Part shown: piece after piece, positions 3,015 through 18,345 of the stretch
How positions within the stretch are numbered: the stretch's first letter is position 1
Layout of the letters: the number at the start of each line of letters is the position of its first letter
DNA from: an uncultured Acidobacteriota bacterium
Lineage (GTDB): Bacteria; Acidobacteriota; UBA6911
Direction: 5' to 3'
Length of the DNA: 64,000 nucleotides
Assembly (NCBI GenBank): GCA_963773605.1
Contig: CAVZBT010000010.1
Location: forward strand, 281,608 to 345,607
The notes under the pieces: model-generated
What the model was told of the DNA's origin: nothing
Database searches by the model: none
The model's input: only the letters and a program-made list of their open reading frames with translations
Position numbers and translations under genes: made by a program

Positions 3015-5117
3015 ATGAGACTGGGGAAGGACCTCTGTTTGCTGGGCACGCTTTTCCTGTGCGCCTGCGCGCAGCGCGATGCGGCATACCACAGCTGGGC
3101 CGTCTACGGGGGTGGGGTCGATCAGATCCGCTACTCGCGGCTCGACCAGATCAACCGCGGCAACGTGTCCGGCCTGCGGCAGGCGTGGGTCTTCGACACC
3201 GGCGACGCGTTTCCGGGCTCCGAGATGCAGTGCAACCCCATCGTCGTGGACGGGATCCTGTATGCCGCCTCCCCGAAGCTGCGGGTGATCGCGCTGGACG
3301 CCGCGCGCGGCAGCCTGCGCTGGAGCTTCGACCCCTTCGAGGGGCGCGAGGTCAGGAACCGCCAGCGGGTCCGCGGGCTCGTCCACTGGAGCGACGGCGC
3401 GGAGCGGCGCATCTATTTTGGCGCCGGCCACGATCTCTGGGCGCTTGACGCCGCGACCGGCCGCCCCGCGACCGGCTTCGGGACGGGCGGCAAAGTCGAC
3501 CTGCGCGAGGGGCTCGGGCGCGATCCGGGTGCGCTGAGCGTCACCCTCACGACTCCCGGGGTGGTTTTCCGGGACCTGCTGATTGTCGGCAGCCTGGTCA
3601 GCGAGGCGCTTCCCTCCGCTCCGGGCGACATCCGTGCCTACGAACTGCGCACGGGTAAGTTGCGCTGGAGTTTTCACACGATCCCGCATCCCGGCGAGTT
3701 CGGCCACGAGACCTGGCCCGCGAACGCCTGGCAGTACGCGGGAGGCGCCAACAGCTGGTCGGGAATGGCGCTCGACGAGCGGCGCGGGCTCGTGTTCGTG
3801 CCGACCGGGTCGGCGGCGTTCGATTTCTACGGCGCCAATCGCCACGGCGATAACCTGTTCGCAAACTGCCTGCTTGCCCTGAGGGCCGAAACCGGGGAAC
3901 GCGTCTGGCATTTTCAGGCCGTGAGGCACGACGTCTGGGATCGCGATCTCCCGTCGCCGCCCAGCCTCGTCCAGGTGCGCCGGGATGGTCGCACCATCGA
4001 TGCGGTCGCGCAGATCACCAAGTCGGGGCACGTGTACGTCTTCGAACGCGAAACCGGTAAGCCCCTCTTTCCGATCGAGAACCGCAGGGTGCCGCCTTCG
4101 GATGTCGACGGCGAGGTGTTGGCCGCCGAGCAGCCGCTTCCCGCGGCGCCCCCGCCGTTTGCCCGGCAGCAACTGACCGAGGAAATGTTGACCCACCGCA
4201 CCCCGGAGGCGCACCAGTCCGCGGTCGACCGCTTCCGCGCGTTGCGCAGCGGCGGGCAGTTCACGCCGCCGAGCCGGGAAGGGACCATCGTGTTCCCGGG
4301 ATTCGACGGTGGGGGCGAGTGGGGCGGCAGCGCCTTCGACCCCGAGTCGCACCTGCTGTATGTCAACTCCAACGAAATGGCGTGGGTGCTTCGGCTCGTG
4401 CCGGTGCCGCCCGTGAAACCGCGCACCAGCGGCCAGCAGCTGTACGGCAGGCATTGCGCCTCCTGCCATCGGGCCGATCTGCGCGGCACTCCCCCCGAGT
4501 TTCCCGCCTTGAACGGGATCGCGGCCAAATACCCGGATTCGCGTATCGGGGAGATCATCCGCGACGGGAGCGGCCGCATGCCGGGCTTCGCAAACCTGCA
4601 GCCCTCCCTGATCGAGGCCATCACCCGGTATCTGGCTCGCGGGGATGCTGTGCCCGCTGTCGCGTCGGACGCGCCGTCGCCGCTTGACCTGAAGTACACG
4701 ACTGACGGATACAACAAGTTTCTAGACCCGGACGGCTATCCGGCACTCGAGCCTCCCTGGGGTACGCTCAACGCCATCGACCTCGACAAGGGCGAGATCG
4801 CGTGGAAGATCCCGTTCGGAGAGTTTCCCGAATTGGCGGCCAGGGGATTGCGCAACACCGGGACGGAAAACTACGGGGGGGCCGTCGTCACCGCCGGCGG
4901 GATCCTGTTTATCGGGGCTACGAATCACGATAAGAAATTCCGCGCGTTCGATAAGGCGACGGGCAAGCTGCTCTGGGAGACGGTCCTGCCCGCGGCCGGC
5001 AACGCCACCCCGGCGACCTACGAGGTCGGCGGCCGGCAGTATGTCGTGATCGCGGCGGGCGGCGGCAAGTCCGGCGCGCCTTCGGGCGGCTCCTATGTCG
5101 CCTTCGCGCTGCCATAG
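3015..5117 (+). CDS. PQQ-dependent dehydrogenase (quinoprotein, glucose/sorbosone type) with embedded cytochrome c domain; lipoprotein
   Basis: Beta-propeller repeats with W-motifs. CASCH heme-binding motif near residue 470 of the ORF. Lipobox LFLCAC after [12 protein letters not shown]. The longer ORF-track start at 2811 overlaps the divergent gene, so the ATG at 3015 was used. Confidence 0.85.
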
Positions 5118-5149: not shown

Positions 5150-6531
5150 GTGCAAATGAGACGCGGCAGGTTCTTGGTGCTGTGGTGCGTCGCGGTGGCG
5201 GTGTTTGGGCAGCAGCAGGTCAACATCATCGTGCGTCCCAAGGAGATCCACGACGTGCTGGTCAACCCGGGGATGGGTATCCAGACTTTCCAGCGCTTCA
5301 ACGGGCAGGCGATCTATCCCGGCCTGCGCTGGTCCGAGGTCGGGCCGGAGGGCCCCGTCGCCGATGCCGCGGGCCCGGTGGACTTTCCCGGCTCTTCGGT
5401 GGCTTATCTGCGCTGGTTCTGGTCGCAGCTGGAACCGGAGCGCGGCAAGTACCGCTGGGACATCCTCGATTCCGCCCTGGACGAGGCGCGCAAGCACGGC
5501 CAGGCCCTGAATATCCGACTCATGCCCTACGACCAGGGGAACCCGCTGCCGGAGTGGTACCGCAACTCGGGCGCCCGCCGGGCCAACAAGCCGAAGACCA
5601 GGATGGCAAGATCTGGTCCCCCGATGCGGACGACCCTGCCTACGCGAAGTACTGGAGCGCTTTCATCCTGGAGGCGGGCCGCCGCTACGACGGGCACCCG
5701 TACCTGGACACGGTGGACATTTCGACGGTGGGCTACTGGGGCGAAGGCTGGGGCCCCTACCTGCCGGCCTGGACGGTGCAGAAGGAGCTGATCGACCTGC
5801 ACTTCAAGGCGTTCACCCGGACCCCCCTGCTGATGAATTTCGACGAGCCGGACGCCCTGGTCTACGGCTGCGAGCGGGGCGCCGGCTGGCGCCTCGATTG
5901 CTGGGGCGATATGGGGCGTCCCGGCCGGAATTTCGCCCACATGGTCGACATGTACCCGCAGCAGATTGCCCGCGGGGGCCTCGGGGACATCTGGCGGCGG
6001 TCGCCCGTGTCGCTGGAGGTGTGCGGCACACCCGGTTCATGGAAGAAGATGAACTACGAGCTGAAGCCGATCCTGGACCAGGCGCTGCGCTGGCACGCAT
6101 CGACGATCAACCTGAAATCGACGAAGATCCCGGACGAGTGGAAAGAAGATTTCGAGGAGTTTCAGAAACAGATCGGTTACCGCTACATGCTGCGCCGCTT
6201 CGAGTATCCCCCGCAAGTGAAGGCGAACCGCATGCTGCCCGTGAAGATGTGGTGGTTCAATGCCGGCGTTGCCCCGGTGTATCGCGAGTACCACCTGATG
6301 ATGCGGATCGGGGACGCTCTCGTGCAGGTGCCCGTCGACGTGCGCAAGTGGCTGCCGGGCGATGCGGTGTACGAGGGGACGCTCTATGTCGACGGGGCCC
6401 TCCGGCCGGGGCAGCACAAGCTCAGCGTGGCCATGGTGGACCCGAGAACCGGGCAGCCGGCCATCCGGCTCGCCATGGAAGGACGTCAGCCCGACGGCTG
6501 GTACGACCTCGGCGCCATCACGGTGGAATGA
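5150..6531 (+). pseudogene. glycoside-hydrolase-like protein (GH42-like N-terminus, DUF4832-type C-terminus) interrupted by a frameshift near 5585-5600
   Basis: The signal peptide and protein-like sequence run in the frame of 5150 up to ...EWYRNSGARRANK. Protein-like sequence then continues in the frame of 5095 from ...EDQDGKIWSPDADDPAYAKYW to the stop at 6531. A single-nt indel around CCGAAGAC joins the two frames. Confidence 0.6.
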
Positions 6532-9020: not shown

Positions 9021-9209
9021 GGAAGAAGCGAGAAGAAAGTAGCCGGAAGCCGAAGACGGAAGCCAGAAGAACGGAAGCCAGAAGACGGACGGAAGCCGGA
9101 AGCCGGAAGAATCCAGTCTGTCCGGTGTCGGCCGTTCATGCATTCGGCTTCCGGCTTCCATCTTTGCCCTGTAGGCACCGGGCTTCCGGCTTCTTTCTTC
9201 CGGCTTCCT
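9021..9209. repeat. GGAAGCC-type polypurine arm (9021-9111) and GGCTTCC-type polypyrimidine arm (9145-9209) forming a long imperfect hairpin
   Basis: GGAAGCCGGAAGCCG at 9091-9105 is perfectly complementary to CGGCTTCCGGCTTCC at 9145-9159. Both arms are built from GGAAGCC(A/G)GAAGA-like units. The element sits directly upstream of the GH2 RBS. Confidence 0.85.
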
Positions 9210-9224
9210 GCATAGGAGGAATGT

Positions 9225-12128
9225 ATGGCCGTCAAAGTTCGGTCTGTCCTACTCAATGCCCCGGCCCGTCCTGGCTTCCGGCTTCTGCCTTTCGGCTTCC
9301 GGCTTCTGCCTTTGGCCTTCATGCTCCTCCAGGCGCCGGCGGTTGTGGCGCAGCCCGACGTGATCTCTCTTGCCGGGCGGTGGCGTTTTTCCCTCGACCG
9401 CGACGATCGCGGGCTCCAGGAGCGCATGTTCGAGACTGCGCTGCCCGGGGCAATCCGGCTGCCGGGGACACTTCCGGGGCAGGGCATCGGTGACGAGGTT
9501 ACGACTGCGACGCGGTGGACGGGGGACATCGTCGACCGCTCCTACTTCACCGAGCCCCAGTATGCGGAGTACAGGCGGCCGGGCAACATCAAGGTCCCCT
9601 TTTGGCTCCAGCCCGACCGGTATTATGCCGGGGTGGCGTGGTACCAGCGAAGCATCCGGGTGCCGTCACGCTGGAGCGGGAAACGGGTCGCCCTCCTGCT
9701 CGAGCGCCCGCACTGGGAGACGCGGGTGTGGCTGGACGGCAAGCCCGCCGGCGGCAACACGTCTCTCGGGACCCCGCACGAGTACGATCTCGGGACCAGG
9801 CTCGCTCCAGGGGGGCACACCCTCACGATCCGGGTGGACAACCGCATGGTGGTCGATGTGGGGGTGAATTCGCACAGCGTCTCCGACCACACGCAGGGAA
9901 ACTGGAACGGTATCGTCGGGCGAATCGAGTTGAGCGCGACCCCGCTCGTGTGGATCTCGGACCTGCAGGTGTTTCCTCATGTGGCCGCGAAATCCGTCAC
10001 GGTCAAGGGCCGCACCGGCAACGCCACCGGGAGCCCCGGCCGCGGCTCGGTGCGGATTGCGGTCCGCCGCGCGCCGCCGGGCGCGGGCGCAGGGATTGCC
10101 GCGCGCACGGTGGGTGTGTCGTGGGACTCCTCCGGCGGGACGTTCCAGGCGGAGATTCCGCTCGGCGCCTCCGCCGAAACCTGGGACGAATTCAACCCCG
10201 CGCTGTACGAGGCCACGGCTGCCCTCGGCCCGGAGGCACACGCGCGCTCCGCGACTTTCGGGATGCGCGAGATATCCACTCGAGGCACTCAGTTTGTGCT
10301 CAACGGCCGCAAGATATTTTTCCGGGGCACGCTCGAATGCGCCATCTTCCCGCTGACCGGCCACCCCCCGGTGGATGTCGAGTCCTGGCGGCGCATCATC
10401 CGTGCGGCAAAGGCGCACGGGCTGAACAATATCCGGTTCCACTCCTGGTGCCCGCCCGAGGCCGCGTTCGTTGCGGCCGACGAACTCGGGTTCTACCTGC
10501 ACGTGGAGTGTTCTTCGTGGGCGAACGGCTCGACCGGTCTGGGAGACGGCCGTCCCGTCGACCGCTGGATCTATGAAGAGGCGGACCGGATCCTCGCCGC
10601 CTACGGCAATCACCCTTCGTTCCTGCTCATGCCGTACGGGAACGAGCCGGGAGGCAAGAATCACGCGGCGTTCCTTTCCCGGTGGGTCGCACATTACCGG
10701 ACTGCCGACTCACGCCGCCTGTACACGAGCGGGGCCGGCTGGCCGCAGCTTCCCGAGAACCAGTTTCACGTGGCGCCGGACCCACGCGTCCAGGCCTGGG
10801 GCGCGGGCCTGAACTCCCGCATCAATGCACGCGCGCCCGAGACCCGGACCGACTACCGCGACTACATCGCCGGCCGGGCCGTCCCGGTGATCAGCCACGA
10901 GATAGGGCAATGGTGCGTCTACCCCGACTTCGAGGAGATGACGAAGTACACGGGGTATCTGAAGCCCAAAAATTTCGAGATTTTCCGCGACCGTTTGCGC
11001 AAAAAAGGGATGCTCGAACAGGCGCAGGCTTTCCTGATGGCATCCGGGAAACTGCAGACCCTCTGTTACAAGGAGGACATCGAGTCGGCGCTGCGGACCC
11101 CGGGGATGGGAGGCTTTCAGCTCCTCGACCTTCACGATTTCCCGGGGCAGGGGACCGCGCTCGTCGGCGTGCTCGACCCGTTCTGGGACTCGAAGGGATA
11201 CGTCACACCCGCCGAGTACAGCCGCTTCTGCAACAGCACCGTGCCGCTTGCGCGCCTGGCCAAGCGGGTGTTTACCACCGCCGAGCCGCTCGAGGCGCAG
11301 CTCGAGGTCACCCACTTCGGCCCCCGGCCGATTGCAGGGGCGGTCGCCGCCTGGAGCCTCGTCGACGAGGCCGGGAAAGCGCAGCGATCGGGCAAGCTGC
11401 CGGCCGCCGATGTGCCGGTGGACAGCGCCGTCGCCCTGGGCCCGATACGGGCGGACCTCGCCGGGTTGACCGCGCCGGCACATTTCAGGCTGGTTGCCGC
11501 CATTGAAGGCACCCCGTTCGAGAACGATTGGGACCTTTGGGTCTACCCTGCGACGCTGCCCGACCCCGGCGGTGCACGCGTCGCGATCGCACGGGAACTG
11601 GACGACGAGACGCTCGGGGCCCTTACCGCCGGCGGCAGGGTGCTGCTGCAGATACCGCCGGCGCGCGTGGCGCCGGACCCCGCCCTGGGCCCCGTCGCGC
11701 TCGGGTTTTCCAGCATTTTCTGGAACACCGCGTGGACGAAACGGCAGGCGCCGCACACGCTCGGCATACTGTGCGACCCGCACAACCCCGCCCTGGCCGA
11801 TTTCCCCACTGAGTACCACAGCAACTGGCAATGGTGGTACCTGGTCAGCAGCGCGGGGGCGATGATCCTGGACCACCTGCCTCGCGGGCTGAACCCGATC
11901 GTGCAGGTGATCGATGACTGGTTTACCGCGCGGAGACTCGGCCTGGTTTTCGAGGCCAGGGTCGGCAAGGGGAAGCTCGTCGTCTGCAGCGTCGATCTGG
12001 AGAGCGGGTTCGAAAACAACCCTGTAGCGCGTCAATTGCGGTACAGCCTGCTGCGTTATATGGCGGGGGAGGGCTTTTTGCCGGCCACTGAACTCACGCC
12101 GGCTCAAGTGCGAGCGCTGTACCGATGA
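9225..12128 (+). CDS. glycoside hydrolase family 2-like enzyme (beta-galactosidase/glucuronidase-type sugar-binding, Ig-like and TIM-barrel domains)
   Basis: 967-aa ORF. The N-terminal jelly-roll region (WYQRSIRVP...LLLERPHWETRVWLDG) and the TIM barrel (NNIRFHSWCPPE...NEPGG) resemble GH2. GGAGGA RBS 5 nt before the ATG. Confidence 0.8.
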   Translation: MAVKVRSVLLNAPARPGFRLLPFGFRLLPLAFMLLQAPAVVAQPDVISLAGRWRFSLDRDDRGLQERMFETALPGAIRLPGTLPGQGIGDEVTTATRWTGDIVDRSYFTEPQYAEYRRPGNIKVPFWLQPDRYYAGVAWYQRSIRVPSRWSGKRVALLLERPHWETRVWLDGKPAGGNTSLGTPHEYDLGTRLAPGGHTLTIRVDNRMVVDVGVNSHSVSDHTQGNWNGIVGRIELSATPLVWISDLQVFPHVAAKSVTVKGRTGNATGSPGRGSVRIAVRRAPPGAGAGIAARTVGVSWDSSGGTFQAEIPLGASAETWDEFNPALYEATAALGPEAHARSATFGMREISTRGTQFVLNGRKIFFRGTLECAIFPLTGHPPVDVESWRRIIRAAKAHGLNNIRFHSWCPPEAAFVAADELGFYLHVECSSWANGSTGLGDGRPVDRWIYEEADRILAAYGNHPSFLLMPYGNEPGGKNHAAFLSRWVAHYRTADSRRLYTSGAGWPQLPENQFHVAPDPRVQAWGAGLNSRINARAPETRTDYRDYIAGRAVPVISHEIGQWCVYPDFEEMTKYTGYLKPKNFEIFRDRLRKKGMLEQAQAFLMASGKLQTLCYKEDIESALRTPGMGGFQLLDLHDFPGQGTALVGVLDPFWDSKGYVTPAEYSRFCNSTVPLARLAKRVFTTAEPLEAQLEVTHFGPRPIAGAVAAWSLVDEAGKAQRSGKLPAADVPVDSAVALGPIRADLAGLTAPAHFRLVAAIEGTPFENDWDLWVYPATLPDPGGARVAIARELDDETLGALTAGGRVLLQIPPARVAPDPALGPVALGFSSIFWNTAWTKRQAPHTLGILCDPHNPALADFPTEYHSNWQWWYLVSSAGAMILDHLPRGLNPIVQVIDDWFTARRLGLVFEARVGKGKLVVCSVDLESGFENNPVARQLRYSLLRYMAGEGFLPATELTPAQVRALYR

Positions 12129-12625: not shown

Positions 12626-12676
12626 CTTTCTTCCGGCTTCTGGCTTCCGCTTTCCGGCTTCCGTCTTCCGCTTCCT
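12626..12676. repeat. GGCTTCC-type polypyrimidine repeat arm (right arm flanking the four-helix-bundle gene)
   Basis: CTTTCTTCCGGCTTCTGGCTTCCGCTTTCCGGCTTCCGTCTTCCGCTTCC. Its reverse complement shares GGAAGCCAGAAG and GAAGACGGAAG blocks with 12131-12165. Confidence 0.85.
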
Positions 12677-14997: not shown

Positions 14998-15423
14998 TTA
15001 ACGCTCTTCGTCCGGCTCGTCGCGCAACCGGTCCTGGTAGTCCTCGGACGACGCAGGGTCGAACTCCCACCTTTTGCGGTCGCGTTCCTGTAGTTTTTCC
15101 GCCGAACGCAGCGGTTCGTTGTCCTCGTAGTTGATCCCGACCGCGTTGGCCAATTCCTCTGCAATATCCTGGTCCGGCGTGGGATTCTGGCCGCCGACCG
15201 ACTCCTCACCCACATCGGATCGCTCCCATTCCGCGTCGAGATCCCCTCCCGAGAGTTGAGGCGTCATGGAGTGGTGCTCCCGGAGCTTGCGGGCGAGCTG
15301 TTTCGGTCCGGATCCCGCGAGTTTCTGGGCCTCGTCGAATTCCCATTCGATTTCAGGATCGACGGGATCGTTCGAGCTTTCCGCTCTCCCTGCGTCGATG
15401 ACCCTTTTGTCTTCCTTTCCCAT
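14998..15423 (-). CDS. small acidic hypothetical protein
   Basis: 141-aa protein-like C-terminal part of a longer ORF. Starts at MGKEDKR (ATG at 15423) behind a GGGAGGA RBS. The upstream part of the ORF track runs through the repeat array and is not coding. Confidence 0.55.
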   Translation of the reverse strand: MGKEDKRVIDAGRAESSNDPVDPEIEWEFDEAQKLAGSGPKQLARKLREHHSMTPQLSGGDLDAEWERSDVGEESVGGQNPTPDQDIAEELANAVGINYEDNEPLRSAEKLQERDRKRWEFDPASSEDYQDRLRDEPDEER

Positions 15424-15475
15424 AGGTCCTCCCTGCTCCGGATCATATGCAACTCCCGTGCCCGATCGAAATCCG

Positions 15476-15630
15476 GTAGGCGGCTGCGCAAGGTCGGCGC
15501 CTAGGCGCCGACCGCAAAGCGGCGTCGAGCCGCCGCACTCCAAAGTATGGAGTGCGGTGCCTGGGCACCGCTGTCTGGGTTTGGCTGGACCGGCAGGCGG
15601 GTGCGCAAGGTCGGCGCGCCGACCCGAAAG
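15476..15630. repeat. composite palindromic (REP-like) repeat array, part upstream of the intron
   Basis: The unit contains the nested palindromes GGTCGGCGCC-TAG-GCGCCGACC, CCGCACTCC-AAAGTAT-GGAGTGCGG and GGTGCC-TG-GGCACC. It is the same unit as in 16594-17100. Confidence 0.9.
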
Positions 15631-16593
15631 GTGTGCCGAGCATGTACGACAGCTCGGAAGTGAAAGTCTTCCACCAACCTGATGGAGGTGAAGGGTAGCA
15701 GAGCGCAAGGGCGCCCGCCGCGAGGCGGGGTCTGAAAGAAGCGCCGAGCAAAAGCACGAGCCGATGGACAAAAACCGGATGAGGCGGGTAGCGCCGGACG
15801 AGCGGCCCTTTGACCGCAAAGTCCATATCCATCAAGGGCGCCGCACGTAGATCCGGCGGTTGTGTGCGGAAGGCGGTCGTACTTACCTCGGGAGGTCTGC
15901 ACGTGTTCTGGGGGACCAGAACTGAGAGATCCGTGAGGGTCCCTGACCGCGATGCAGAAGTCAGCAGACGGCATAGTAAGAGGCGGCAGTCGGATCACTC
16001 GACCGGGGCACTCACCCGAAAGGGGAGAAACAGTAGGGGTCGCGGAACCGGGAACGCGCTGATGAAGGCCCGAACGGCTCCCTTCTGGGAAGAAGGGTAA
16101 ATGGTGACGCGAGTAGGGACAGGGACTCATGGGCAGAAAGCGGCAGAAGAACCAGCTTGAGCTGGCCTTCACGGCAGAGACGAGGGGTGAAGCCCCGGCG
16201 CCTGGCGGAAGGGTCGAACTGCACATGGTGAAACAGGAGCCGGAAAGCGAAGGCAGCCCGGAGCGGCTGATGGAGGGGGTATGTGAGCCGGAGAATCTGA
16301 GAAGGGCGTTGAAACGAGTGCAGGCCAACAAGGGGGCACCGGGAATCGACGGCATAACGGTCGAGGAGTTGCCGAACTACCTGAAGAAGAACTGGCCCAG
16401 ACATCGGGAAGAGCTGCTCGAAGGGACCTACAGGCCGAAACCTGCGCGAAGGATGCCGAACGCCTACTTCGATTCGCTGGGCCTCCCGCGCTTAGTTGCT
16501 CTATACGGTCGCTAACCAGCCGAATCGCCGTGTACGGACCCGTACGCACGGTGGTGTGACAGGGACAGCGGGCGACCGCCTACCTATGTCGAT
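15631..16593 (+). mobile_element. class C (IIC) group II intron, ORF-deleted derivative
   Basis: The 5' end GUGUGCCGAGCAUG and the internal CAGAAGUCAGCAGA block closely resemble the Oceanobacillus iheyensis IIC intron as I recall it. Domain V at about 16524-16555 (AAUCGCCGUGUACGGACCCGUACGCACGGUGGUGUG) has a 2-nt bulge and the IIC-type CGC triad. The flanks rejoin to an intact repeat unit. Confidence 0.8.
16129..16515 (+). pseudogene. internally deleted group II intron reverse transcriptase/maturase (IEP) remnant
   Basis: The N-terminus ...ENLRRALKRVQANKGAPGIDGITVEEL...LLEGTYRPKP (RT0/RT1) is fused directly to the typical IEP C-terminal tail PNAYFDSLGLPRL. The RT2-7, X and En regions are missing. 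Confidence 0.85.
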
Positions 16594-17100
16594 CGGCGTC
16601 GAGCCGCCGCACTCCAAATGTGGAGTGCGGTGCCTGGGCAGTCGAGCCGCCGCACTCCACACAAGTTGGTTTGGCTGGGCGACGGTATTGCCCTCCGCAT
16701 TATTTGGAGAGGGTGCGGTGCCTCGGCACCGCTTTCGCGGTTGCACTGTATCGGTAGGTGCGGCCGAAGTGCGGCGTCGAGCCCGCCTGCGGCACCGCTG
16801 TCTGGGTTTGGCTGGACCGGCAAGCAGGTGCGCAAGGTCGGCGCCTAGGCGCCGACCCCAAAGCGGCGTCGAGCCGCCGCACTCCAAAATATGGAGTGCG
16901 GTGCCTGGGCACCGCTGTCTGGGTTTAGCTGGACCGGCAGGCAGCTCCGCAAGGTCGGCGCCTAGGCGCCGACCGCAAAGCGGCGTCGAGCCGCCGCACT
17001 CCAAAGTATGGAGTGCGGTGCCTGGGCACCGCTGTCTGAGTTTCGCCGGACTGGCAAGCAGGTGCGCAAGGTCGGCGCCTGGGCGCCGCACTCCGGAGTG
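16594..17100. repeat. tandem array (about 4 units of roughly 125 bp, one degenerate) of the composite palindromic REP-like repeat
   Basis: Repeated CGTCGAGCCGCCGCACTCCAAA(G/A)TATGGAGTGCGGTGCCTGGGCACCGCTGTCTGGGTTTGGCTGGACCGGCAGGC.GGTGCGCAAGGTCGGCGCCTAGGCGCCGACC.CAAAGCGG. Confidence 0.9.
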
Positions 17101-18293: not shown

Positions 18294-18303
18294 GGTGCTA
18301 AAT

Positions 18304-18345
18304 CTTCCGGCTTCGGGCTTCCGGCTTCCATCTTCCGTTCCCTCC
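18304..18345. repeat. solo GGCTTCC-type polypyrimidine repeat between convergent genes
   Basis: CTTCCGGCTTCGGGCTTCCGGCTTCCATCTTCCGTTCCCTCC lies 10 nt after the TPR gene stop. No purine-rich partner arm was seen nearby. Confidence 0.8.

Follow-up and report, generated by a model that had tools for sequence, protein, structure and literature searches.

A class C group II intron with a deleted reading frame in a palindromic repeat array of an uncultured Acidobacteriota bacterium

Introduction

As mobile retroelements, the class C (IIC) group II introns studied so far (B.h.I1, O.i.I1, GsI-IIC and an intron of Eubacterium rectale) share a family of intron proteins that lack an endonuclease, and a 5' end reading GUGUG. 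Their domain V carries a CGC triad, a 3-bp upper helix and a 2-nucleotide (nt) bulge, and they insert a few bases past a DNA stem-loop next to an intron-binding site (IBS1) of 4-5 nt. The element described here, a 963-nt intron in a 64,000-nt stretch of DNA from an uncultured Acidobacteriota bacterium (assembly GCA_963773605.1, contig CAVZBT010000010.1, positions 281,608 to 345,607; hereafter the window), resembles them in all of these respects. The likeness to O.i.I1 extends to the letters of domain V: a primer printed for that intron reads ...AACCGCCGTATACCGA and its counterpart in the window AATCGCCGTGTACGGA, with the same CGC triad and the same short upper helix (PMC4748821). Three features set the window element apart from the studied introns: its target hairpin belongs to a 117-nt palindromic repeat and is followed by a purine-rich spacer (CAAAG or ..AGAGNNTAG) instead of a run of T, its domain III has an extra insertion of about 70 nt, and its open reading frame (ORF) was lost naturally.

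The loss of the ORF has precedents, as bacterial introns without an ORF are nearly always accompanied by related introns, and the protein of these may serve them in trans (PMC4424553). The ORF-less introns of Simon et al. (2008), as far as they are summarised in PMC4424553, resemble the window element in having a complete ribozyme, a lost protein gene and ORF remnants that reveal their derivation, and in having close full-length introns that encode a protein possibly acting in trans; compared with the cases in that summary, the parent is here known almost to the base, and the derivation consists of a single in-frame deletion of 999 nt.

The choice of target also has parallels. Class C introns insert at terminators and, in a minority, at attC sites (PMC4424553). 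The attC-specific introns, such as S.ma.I2, likewise form a IIC lineage specialised on a repeated imperfect palindrome and not on terminators (PMC4424553, PMC3001079), but the repeat in the window has no attC core sites and is arranged in tandem without gene cassettes between its copies. Elements that target repetitive extragenic palindromic (REP) sequences (ISPpu9/10, IS1397 and an intron of P. putida KT2440) also use an extragenic palindromic repeat as a landing site, and in P. putida KT2440 two of nine group II intron copies lie at REP elements (PMC1525189). By contrast, all four known copies of the sub-family considered here occupy one exact position of the repeat, and that position appears to be set by base pairing between intron and target.

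By comparing the window with covariance models, with full-length relatives and with the empty copies of its own repeat, we find that the element is best explained as a whole as a non-autonomous derivative that a deletion produced from a recently active class C intron retroelement (a probability of about 0.85). Its less usual aspects are the repeat-element target, the fixed geometry of that target and a hairpin that begins at position +1 of the 3' exon; otherwise it is of a known kind, a fairly ordinary broken copy of an active mobile intron. The coordinates of all features are collected in Table 1.

Results and discussion

A group II intron interrupts a tandem repeat

The entire window was scanned with Rfam models at their gathering scores, and positions 15400-16900 were rescanned permissively. 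Just two matches in the whole window exceed the gathering score, and both lie inside the intron: RF02001 (group II domains I-IV, model 3), with 123.1 bits and an E-value of 8e-25, and RF01998, with 39.7 bits, whose match spans the AGAAGUCAGCAGA block. The model of domains V-VI, RF00029, matches 16523-16593 with 36.8 bits (E 3e-5), about 3 bits below its gathering score of 40, and the match stops exactly at the proposed 3' end of the intron. Because the full-length intron at locus L078 (introduced below) also scores 36.8 bits, with the other full-length relatives at 35.9-43.2 bits, this sub-threshold score is a trait of the lineage and not a sign of decay. All three Rfam regions are therefore present in the element. 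When 16516-16593 is folded, domain V is predicted to form a 10-bp lower helix containing the CGC triad (C16526-G16527-C16528), a bulge (A16544-C16545), a 3-bp upper helix and a GACC loop; an internal block, CAGAAGTCAGCAGA, stands at 15955-15968. The permissive scan also returned matches of microRNA families on the repeat hairpins, which we reject as chance matches to GC-rich hairpins.

The intron lies in an array of a 117-nt unit that extends from 15473 to 17100 (repeat families D1-D6; Tandem Repeats Finder period 117). Intact units read GGTCGGCGCCTAGGCGCCGACC-GCAAAG-CGGCGTCGAGCCGCCGCACTCC..., and at the occupied site the palindrome GGTCGGCGCGCCGACC is followed by CGAAAG (15625-15630), the intron and then CGGCGTCGAGCC, so that the 3' exon opens with C16594 (IBS3) and a hairpin CGGCG...CGCCG. 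Without 15631-16593 the joined exons read ...CCGACCCGAAAG^CGGCGTCGAGCC (here and below a caret marks a junction). The 100 nt on the 5' side and the 100 nt on the 3' side of the intron, when joined, align over the junction to the intact units with 90% identity, and apart from substitutions the sole difference is a 6-nt gap in the palindrome. Since the joined flanks align to intact units across the junction, the insertion is real, and its boundaries match those of the full-length copies at L078-L080. The possibility that the flanks were carried along by the intron is ruled out, as empty copies of the repeat outnumber occupied ones. The repeat core occurs 10 times in the 64 kb, against 0.01 occurrences expected by chance, in copies that apparently lie between likely genes, and five empty junctions of the form AAAG^CGGCG(T/C)CGAGCC are found in the window.

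Taken together, the domain I-IV models, the features of domains V-VI and the precise insertion establish that 15631-16593 is a group II intron. The original prediction, made from the letters alone, had named the palindrome, the 6-nt spacer, the 5' end at 15631, the internal block and domain V, all of which hold on direct reading and in the predicted fold; its view of the element as an insertion into a repeat unit is borne out by the paralogous units, which align intact across the junction, and the group II models that it pointed to do match, RF02001 and RF01998 above the gathering score and RF00029 just below it. The intron thereby accounts both for the 1-kb interruption of the repeat array and for a spurious 128-aa (amino acid) gene in the annotation.

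Full-length relatives and assignment to class C

A first protein search with the ORF remnant gave only proteins of at most 223 aa, which masked the full-length relatives; an artificial 461-aa bait, built from the window termini and the middle of the L001 protein and used for searching only, recovered thousands of them. The best match of the genome-contig scan is an Acidobacteriota metagenome-assembled genome (MAG) with 79% identity. At L001, in an Acidobacteriota MAG, an intron of 1963 nt encodes a 464-aa protein and aligns to the window intron with a single gap of 999 nt. Much closer is a 461-aa protein, P0120, which is 98% identical to the 108 N-terminal residues encoded in the window and is itself encoded at three loci: L078 (ENA ERZ25039513), L079 (ERZ25039545) and L080 (Logan SRR28061594). 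L078 and L079 each carry an intron of 1962 nt and are identical throughout it, and L080, whose contig stops about 35 nt short of the intron 3' end, differs from them at two positions. As the neighbouring genes of L078 and L079 differ, these are two loci, and because their introns are nonetheless identical, the family moved recently. Seven of the 963 positions of the window copy depart from these introns (99.3% identity), and it is otherwise the same sequence minus positions 824-1822; that the window and L079 represent one locus is ruled out, since their neighbouring genes differ.

The cluster of P0120 also includes the window ORF itself (P0237) and a further 461-aa protein, P0234, whose gene lies on a 1,646,296-bp contig. 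All 108 N-terminal and 19 C-terminal residues of the window ORF recur unchanged in P0234, including two at which P0120 differs, which makes P0234 the best candidate for the parent protein. The locus offers a natural pair, an active full-length IIC intron and a 99.3%-identical derivative that differ essentially by one in-frame deletion in the protein gene, which is suited to testing whether a IIC intron protein splices or mobilises a ribozyme in trans.

The class was assessed on the proteins of the full-length relatives, and their lineage by the ranking of matches and not by a phylogenetic tree. Against solved structures, the L001 protein matches the GsI-IIC reverse transcriptase (RT) best, over its full length (E 5e-151). 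IIC proteins of E. rectale and Roseburia rank next, with 1e-104 for the E. rectale IIC protein and 1e-81 for two IIC maturase RT domains; the matches to LtrA (class IIA) and to a IIB protein reach just 1e-35. The full-length relatives (L001, 464 aa; P0120 and P0234, 461 aa) contain only PF00078 and PF08388, and no endonuclease domain was found in the protein of any of them. Class C introns typically have a CGC triad in domain V, where AGC is usual, and a compact domain I that lacks a functional EBS2 (exon-binding site 2); the triad of the window element is CGC. Membership in class C, which the original prediction had proposed from the 5' end, the internal block and domain V, is well supported by the ranking among solved structures and by domain content.

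An in-frame deletion of 999 nt in the intron ORF

In the remnant 128-aa ORF, the 108 N-terminal residues of the intron protein are fused to the final 19-20. Residues 1-108 take in the N-terminal extension and RT0 and reach the first residues of RT1: the ORF matches TIGR04416 (the NCBIfam group II RT/maturase model) with an E-value of 3.5e-13 over residues 55-109, and its best match is the GsI-IIC RT (E 2e-15), in GsI-IIC residues 3-65. The last 19-20 residues (PNAYFDSLGLPRLVALYGR) correspond to the C-terminal tail of the full-length proteins, and a Pfam search of the 128-aa remnant gave no significant match. Missing are positions 824-1822 of the full-length intron, that is, codons 109-441, in frame and with no microhomology at the junction. 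The same clean gap of 999 nt appears when the window copy is aligned to L001, L060, L066, L073, L075, L077 and L078-L080. The estimate of about 1 kb missing, and the reading of the ORF as an N-terminal part fused to the C-terminal tail, had already been made in the original prediction and are now exact.

The deletion removes RT motifs 1-7 and the maturase (thumb) domain X, and spares domains I-III, V and VI and a stub of domain IV. In its gene content the window element is an ORF-less intron, with no functional intron protein and all ribozyme regions present. No second copy of the mini-intron was found: among about 15 billion proteins the 128-aa product is recorded on a single contig (575,834 bp), an exact look-up of the product gave no match, and none of 19 metagenome loci carries the same deletion junction.

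Other copies in the clade are broken in other ways. L082 (2090-3214, start approximate) is a mini-intron of about 1.1 kb in which all three Rfam regions are present and whose 211-aa protein has lost the RT fingers and palm, so that its N-terminus runs directly into the retained maturase domain (PF08388); such a protein may have a splicing-only function. L063 (240-548 of the oriented copy) measures 309 nt and retains only the first 204 nt and domains V-VI, L057 (3661-4403) is a 743-nt form without the domain I core, L059, L061, L072 and L074 represent one 3'-truncated site, and L069 is a fragment. At L081 (809-2992) a related IIC intron is split by a gene for an IS110-family transposase between domain III and the remnant ORF, and L064 (853-2598, minus strand as stored) is a twintron, in which a second group II intron of another type (RF01999, 112 bits; RF00029, 56.5 bits) is nested in the ORF of the IIC protein. 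Introns of this clade have thus repeatedly lost internal parts of their ORF.

Target recognition at palindromic repeats

The full-length copies at L078-L080 lie in further copies of this repeat, each at the very point that the intron takes in the window unit: ...GGGGCGGCGCCCAGGCGCCGCCCC-CAAAG^intron^CGGCGTCGAGCCGCCGCACTCC at L078, ...GGTCGGCGCCTAGGCGCCGACC-CCAAAG^intron^CGGCG... at L079 and ...GGCGGCGCCCAGGCGCTGCC-ACCAAAG^intron at L080. Together with at least five empty sites, these four occupied sites define one target, a hairpin followed by (C)CAAAG^CGGCG, of which the window site has its own variant, CGAAAG. The loop of a domain I hairpin presents EBS1 (CUUUG), which can form 5 bp with the CAAAG of the other sites and 4 bp with AAAG in the window.

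More distant relatives were drawn from a metagenome scan (the 19 loci mentioned above). In seven of them (L001, L061, L064, L067, L071, L073 and L075) EBS1 reads CUAU opposite (A/G)UAG; at L066 it reads CUUUG opposite CAAAG, and the CUUU/AAAG pairing is common to the window, L066 and L078-L080. At L062 and L076 (GCAG) and at L060 (UUAG) the pairing covers just 2-3 positions. The predicted EBS1-IBS1 pairing (3-5 bp) is thus one that covaries with the target among relatives.

Each of the 19 distinct sites has a predicted GC-rich hairpin on its 5' side, and the weakest are those of L076 and of the shortened palindrome in the window. Between 2 and 12 nt separate the stem end from the insertion site, and the spacing measured from the centre of the loop is far more constant: it is 17.0 nt in L078, L079 and L080 and, as counted from the sequence, in the intact empty units of the window. 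A further 15 sites give 17-20 nt, so that 18 sites fall within this range, compared with 14 nt at the occupied site of the window. No T-run follows any of the target hairpins, their spacers being purine-rich, and a terminator scan found no terminator-like site at the insertion point; the targets are therefore repeat hairpins and not typical intrinsic terminators. This concerns the kind of target and not the class of the intron, as the attC-targeting class C lineage also does without terminators. On the other side of the insertion point, the 3' exon starts with a GC-rich hairpin at +1 in eight of nine sites (the window, L001, L060, L063, L064, L065, L066 and L075), so the intron inserts between two hairpins. 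We know of no published IIC target model in which a 3'-exon hairpin at +1 is a requirement.

The original prediction held that the REP hairpins of this genome act as IIC homing sites. Its substance is strengthened by the three full-length copies at the same point of the same repeat, and its label is loose: the hairpins are part of a 117-nt composite, partly tandem repeat. The sites document a IIC lineage that targets repeated palindromes, and neither terminators nor attC sites, and they provide a simple testable target rule, namely a constant distance from loop to site together with EBS1-IBS1 covariation. A bolder version would hold that two-hairpin repeats serve this lineage, of apparently acidobacterial type, as a dedicated landing site, which it reads by the top of the 5' hairpin at 17 nt and perhaps by the 3' hairpin at +1, and that the 963-nt form is mobilised in trans by the 461-aa protein; we regard this combination as improbable.

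The target at L001 lies inside a palindromic element that resembles a miniature inverted-repeat transposable element (MITE; 3429-3446, 5619-5652, 5677-5694) with inverted GTTTCTGTCGCGAAAC ends. An empty inverted copy of the target is present there at 5619-5652, flanked by the motif GTTTCTGTCGCGAAAC, which is also found upstream of the introns in L060 and L069.

Proposed origin of the window copy

The full-length element is an intron of 1962 nt whose 461-aa protein has RT and maturase domains and no endonuclease, and we propose that the family inserts into one strand of the palindromic repeat. Its target would consist of a GC-rich hairpin (loop centre 17 nt upstream), CAAAG, the insertion point and a C, with CAAAG pairing with the intron loop CUUUG (EBS1-IBS1) and the C, as first base of the 3' exon, serving as IBS3. 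By analogy with the studied IIC introns, insertion would proceed by reverse splicing into single-stranded DNA, and a nascent strand at the replication fork would prime cDNA synthesis (GC skew changes sign over the 64 kb and is uninformative on the replication strand). The window copy has lost 999 nt of its domain IV ORF in frame, most likely at this site, during or after insertion. As it cannot make a protein of its own, it would depend on that of a full-length copy, acting in trans, for any splicing beyond basal ribozyme hydrolysis and for any mobility. We put the chances that the copy can still be spliced in this way at even, and doubt strongly that it was ever mobilised; we judge it to be a single copy that is not spreading.

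Several observations weigh against this proposal. A consensus structure of domains I-III, built from 12 copies, contains 138 predicted pairs, and four of the differences between the window copy and L078 fall in the ribozyme (15942, 15969, 16044 and 16078): the change at 15942 turns A15927-U into A.C in domain II, and that at 15969 turns the conserved pair G15969-C16071 into C.C at the base of domain III (16044 is unpaired, and the pair at 16078 is kept). With these two pair-breaking changes and a drop of 3.4 bits in the RF01998 score (39.7 against 43.1 in L078), the ribozyme may already be impaired. The occupied site is itself atypical: its hairpin is 6 nt shorter, the loop lies 14 and not 17 nt from the insertion point, and IBS1 forms 4 bp and not 5. 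These departures could impair recognition of the 5' splice site. Its palindrome lacks the central CCTAGG of all other units (15492-15513, 16836-16857, 16953-16974), a short form found nowhere else among all sequences compared, and its spacer reads CGAAAG where the others have (G/C)CAAAG; either the site changed after insertion or it was atypical from the outset. No promoter-like site was found upstream of the intron, the mechanism of insertion is inferred only from the studied introns, and the 64-kb window contains no full-length intron, second intron or RT gene. The relatives that the original prediction expected at other hairpins were therefore recovered in part: full-length copies at L078-L080 in public assemblies, none within the window, and in the public data searched no second copy of the mini-intron.

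The most serious alternative is that the window copy is a dead relic that neither splices nor moves, decaying like the other broken copies of the clade, of which L063, L057, L069, L081 and the site shared by L059, L061, L072 and L074 are examples. The two pair-breaking substitutions, the altered 5'-exon hairpin with its shortened IBS1 and the lack of a promoter-like site upstream all suit this explanation. However, the copy has diverged by merely 0.7% from active ones, its domain I and domain V-VI scores (RF02001 and RF00029) are unchanged from L078, and the catalytic triad, the bulge, both splice-site motifs and the branch-point A are all preserved. Two helices with a single mismatch each are also within the range of the full-length relatives, as the number of non-standard pairs among the 138 is 5 in the window, 3 in L078 and 0-5 in the others. 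Of the three differences from L078 that fall in the ORF, two are common to P0234, and some of the ribozyme differences may thus be parental instead of signs of decay. The modelled ribozyme therefore appears largely intact, and we consider a dead relic possible, though rather unlikely. Each of the seven differences from the full-length copies (15942, 15969, 16044, 16078, 16170, 16321 and 16325) is a change to C or G in the window copy, and in six cases to C.

At the opposite extreme, the mini-intron could be a MITE-like mobile element in its own right that arrived at the site already deleted and that relies on a full-length copy to supply the protein for splicing and retrohoming. It keeps all ribozyme domains and both ends, it belongs to a recently active family, the P0234 protein is identical to it in the retained parts, and five good empty targets lie inside the window; ORF-less introns have also been reported to share their genomes with related introns that may provide a protein in trans (PMC4424553). 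Against this, one copy is known, its 128-aa product being confined to one contig among the roughly 15 billion proteins and its junction absent from the 19 metagenome loci, and three better targets, with CAAAG and the full hairpin, stand empty within 1.4 kb. Group II intron proteins, moreover, generally act mainly on the RNA that encodes them. We hold a mobile mini-intron to be quite improbable.

Least probable by far is that the 999-nt deletion is an assembly artefact, a collapse or mis-join of reads from a full-length locus, since, although the intron is multi-copy and nearly identical across sites and sits in a repeat array that breaks short-read assemblies (Logan contig L058 ends there), the junction is clean and lies inside unique ORF sequence instead of at a repeat, the window copy has its own substitutions 5' of the junction, and the clade has many further internal deletions whose junctions differ.

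Feature coordinates and minor observations

Table 1. Features of the intron and of the surrounding repeat array in the window
Feature	Position	Strand	Evidence
Class C group II intron, ORF-deleted, 963 nt	15631-16593	+	Rfam matches, full-length alignments, empty-site comparison
Intron 5' end, GTGTGCCGAGCATG (GTGTGCCGAGCATGTACGACAGCTCGG)	starts 15631	+	read directly
Intron 3' end, ...CCTACCTATGTCGAT, then CGGCGTCGAGCC	16593 / 16594 on	+	read directly
Domain I core, including tetraloop-receptor region and EBS1 stem-loop	15714-15880	+	RF02001, 123.1 bits, equal to L078
EBS1 (CUUUG), loop of hairpin 15802-15817	15808-15812	+	pairs with target; covariation in relatives
Domain II, joiner of domains II and III (J2/3; AGAAGUCAGCAGA) and domain III	15923-16070	+	RF01998, 39.7 bits (L078, 43.1 bits)
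Remnant intron-protein ORF in domain IV, 128 aa	16129-16515	+	protein-model and full-length comparisons
Deletion junction (GCGCGAAGGATGCCGAACGCC)	16453^16454	+	alignment to full-length relatives
Domain V	16524-16555	+	RF00029 alignment and predicted fold
Domain VI, with bulged candidate branch-point A16586, 8 nt before the 3' end	16557-16591	+	RF00029 and predicted fold
Repeat array upstream of intron (full unit 15473-15589; 5' part of interrupted unit 15590-15630)	15473-15630	+	
5'-exon hairpin, 16-nt perfect palindrome GGTCGGCGCGCCGACC	15609-15624	+	read directly
IBS1 (AAAG), final four 5'-exon bases	15627-15630	+	complementary to EBS1; pairing covaries in relatives
3' exon and downstream array (rest of interrupted unit, degenerate stretch, then about 2.6 more 117-nt units)	16594-17100	+	
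Empty homing site, unit 1: hairpin GGTCGGCGCCTAGGCGCCGACC, GCAAAG, CGGCG	15492-15524	+	motif census
Further empty homing sites	start at 16836 and 16953	+	motif census
Empty junction motifs, starts	15516, 16860, 16977	+	motif census
Empty junction motifs, starts	28831, 35719	-	motif census

A Logan contig of the same organism (L058 / L083; ERR10755943, 2430 nt) stops at the start of the repeat array, from which we conclude that the array breaks short-read assemblies. It was all that look-ups of proteins encoded near the intron yielded, and it gives no link between the window and the samples with L078 and L079. Apart from the 117-nt unit, the heptamer CTTCCGG / AGCCGGA forms short tandem arrays, in both orientations, at four places within 10 kb (9041-9109, 9273-9320, 12630-12675 and 18302-18337).

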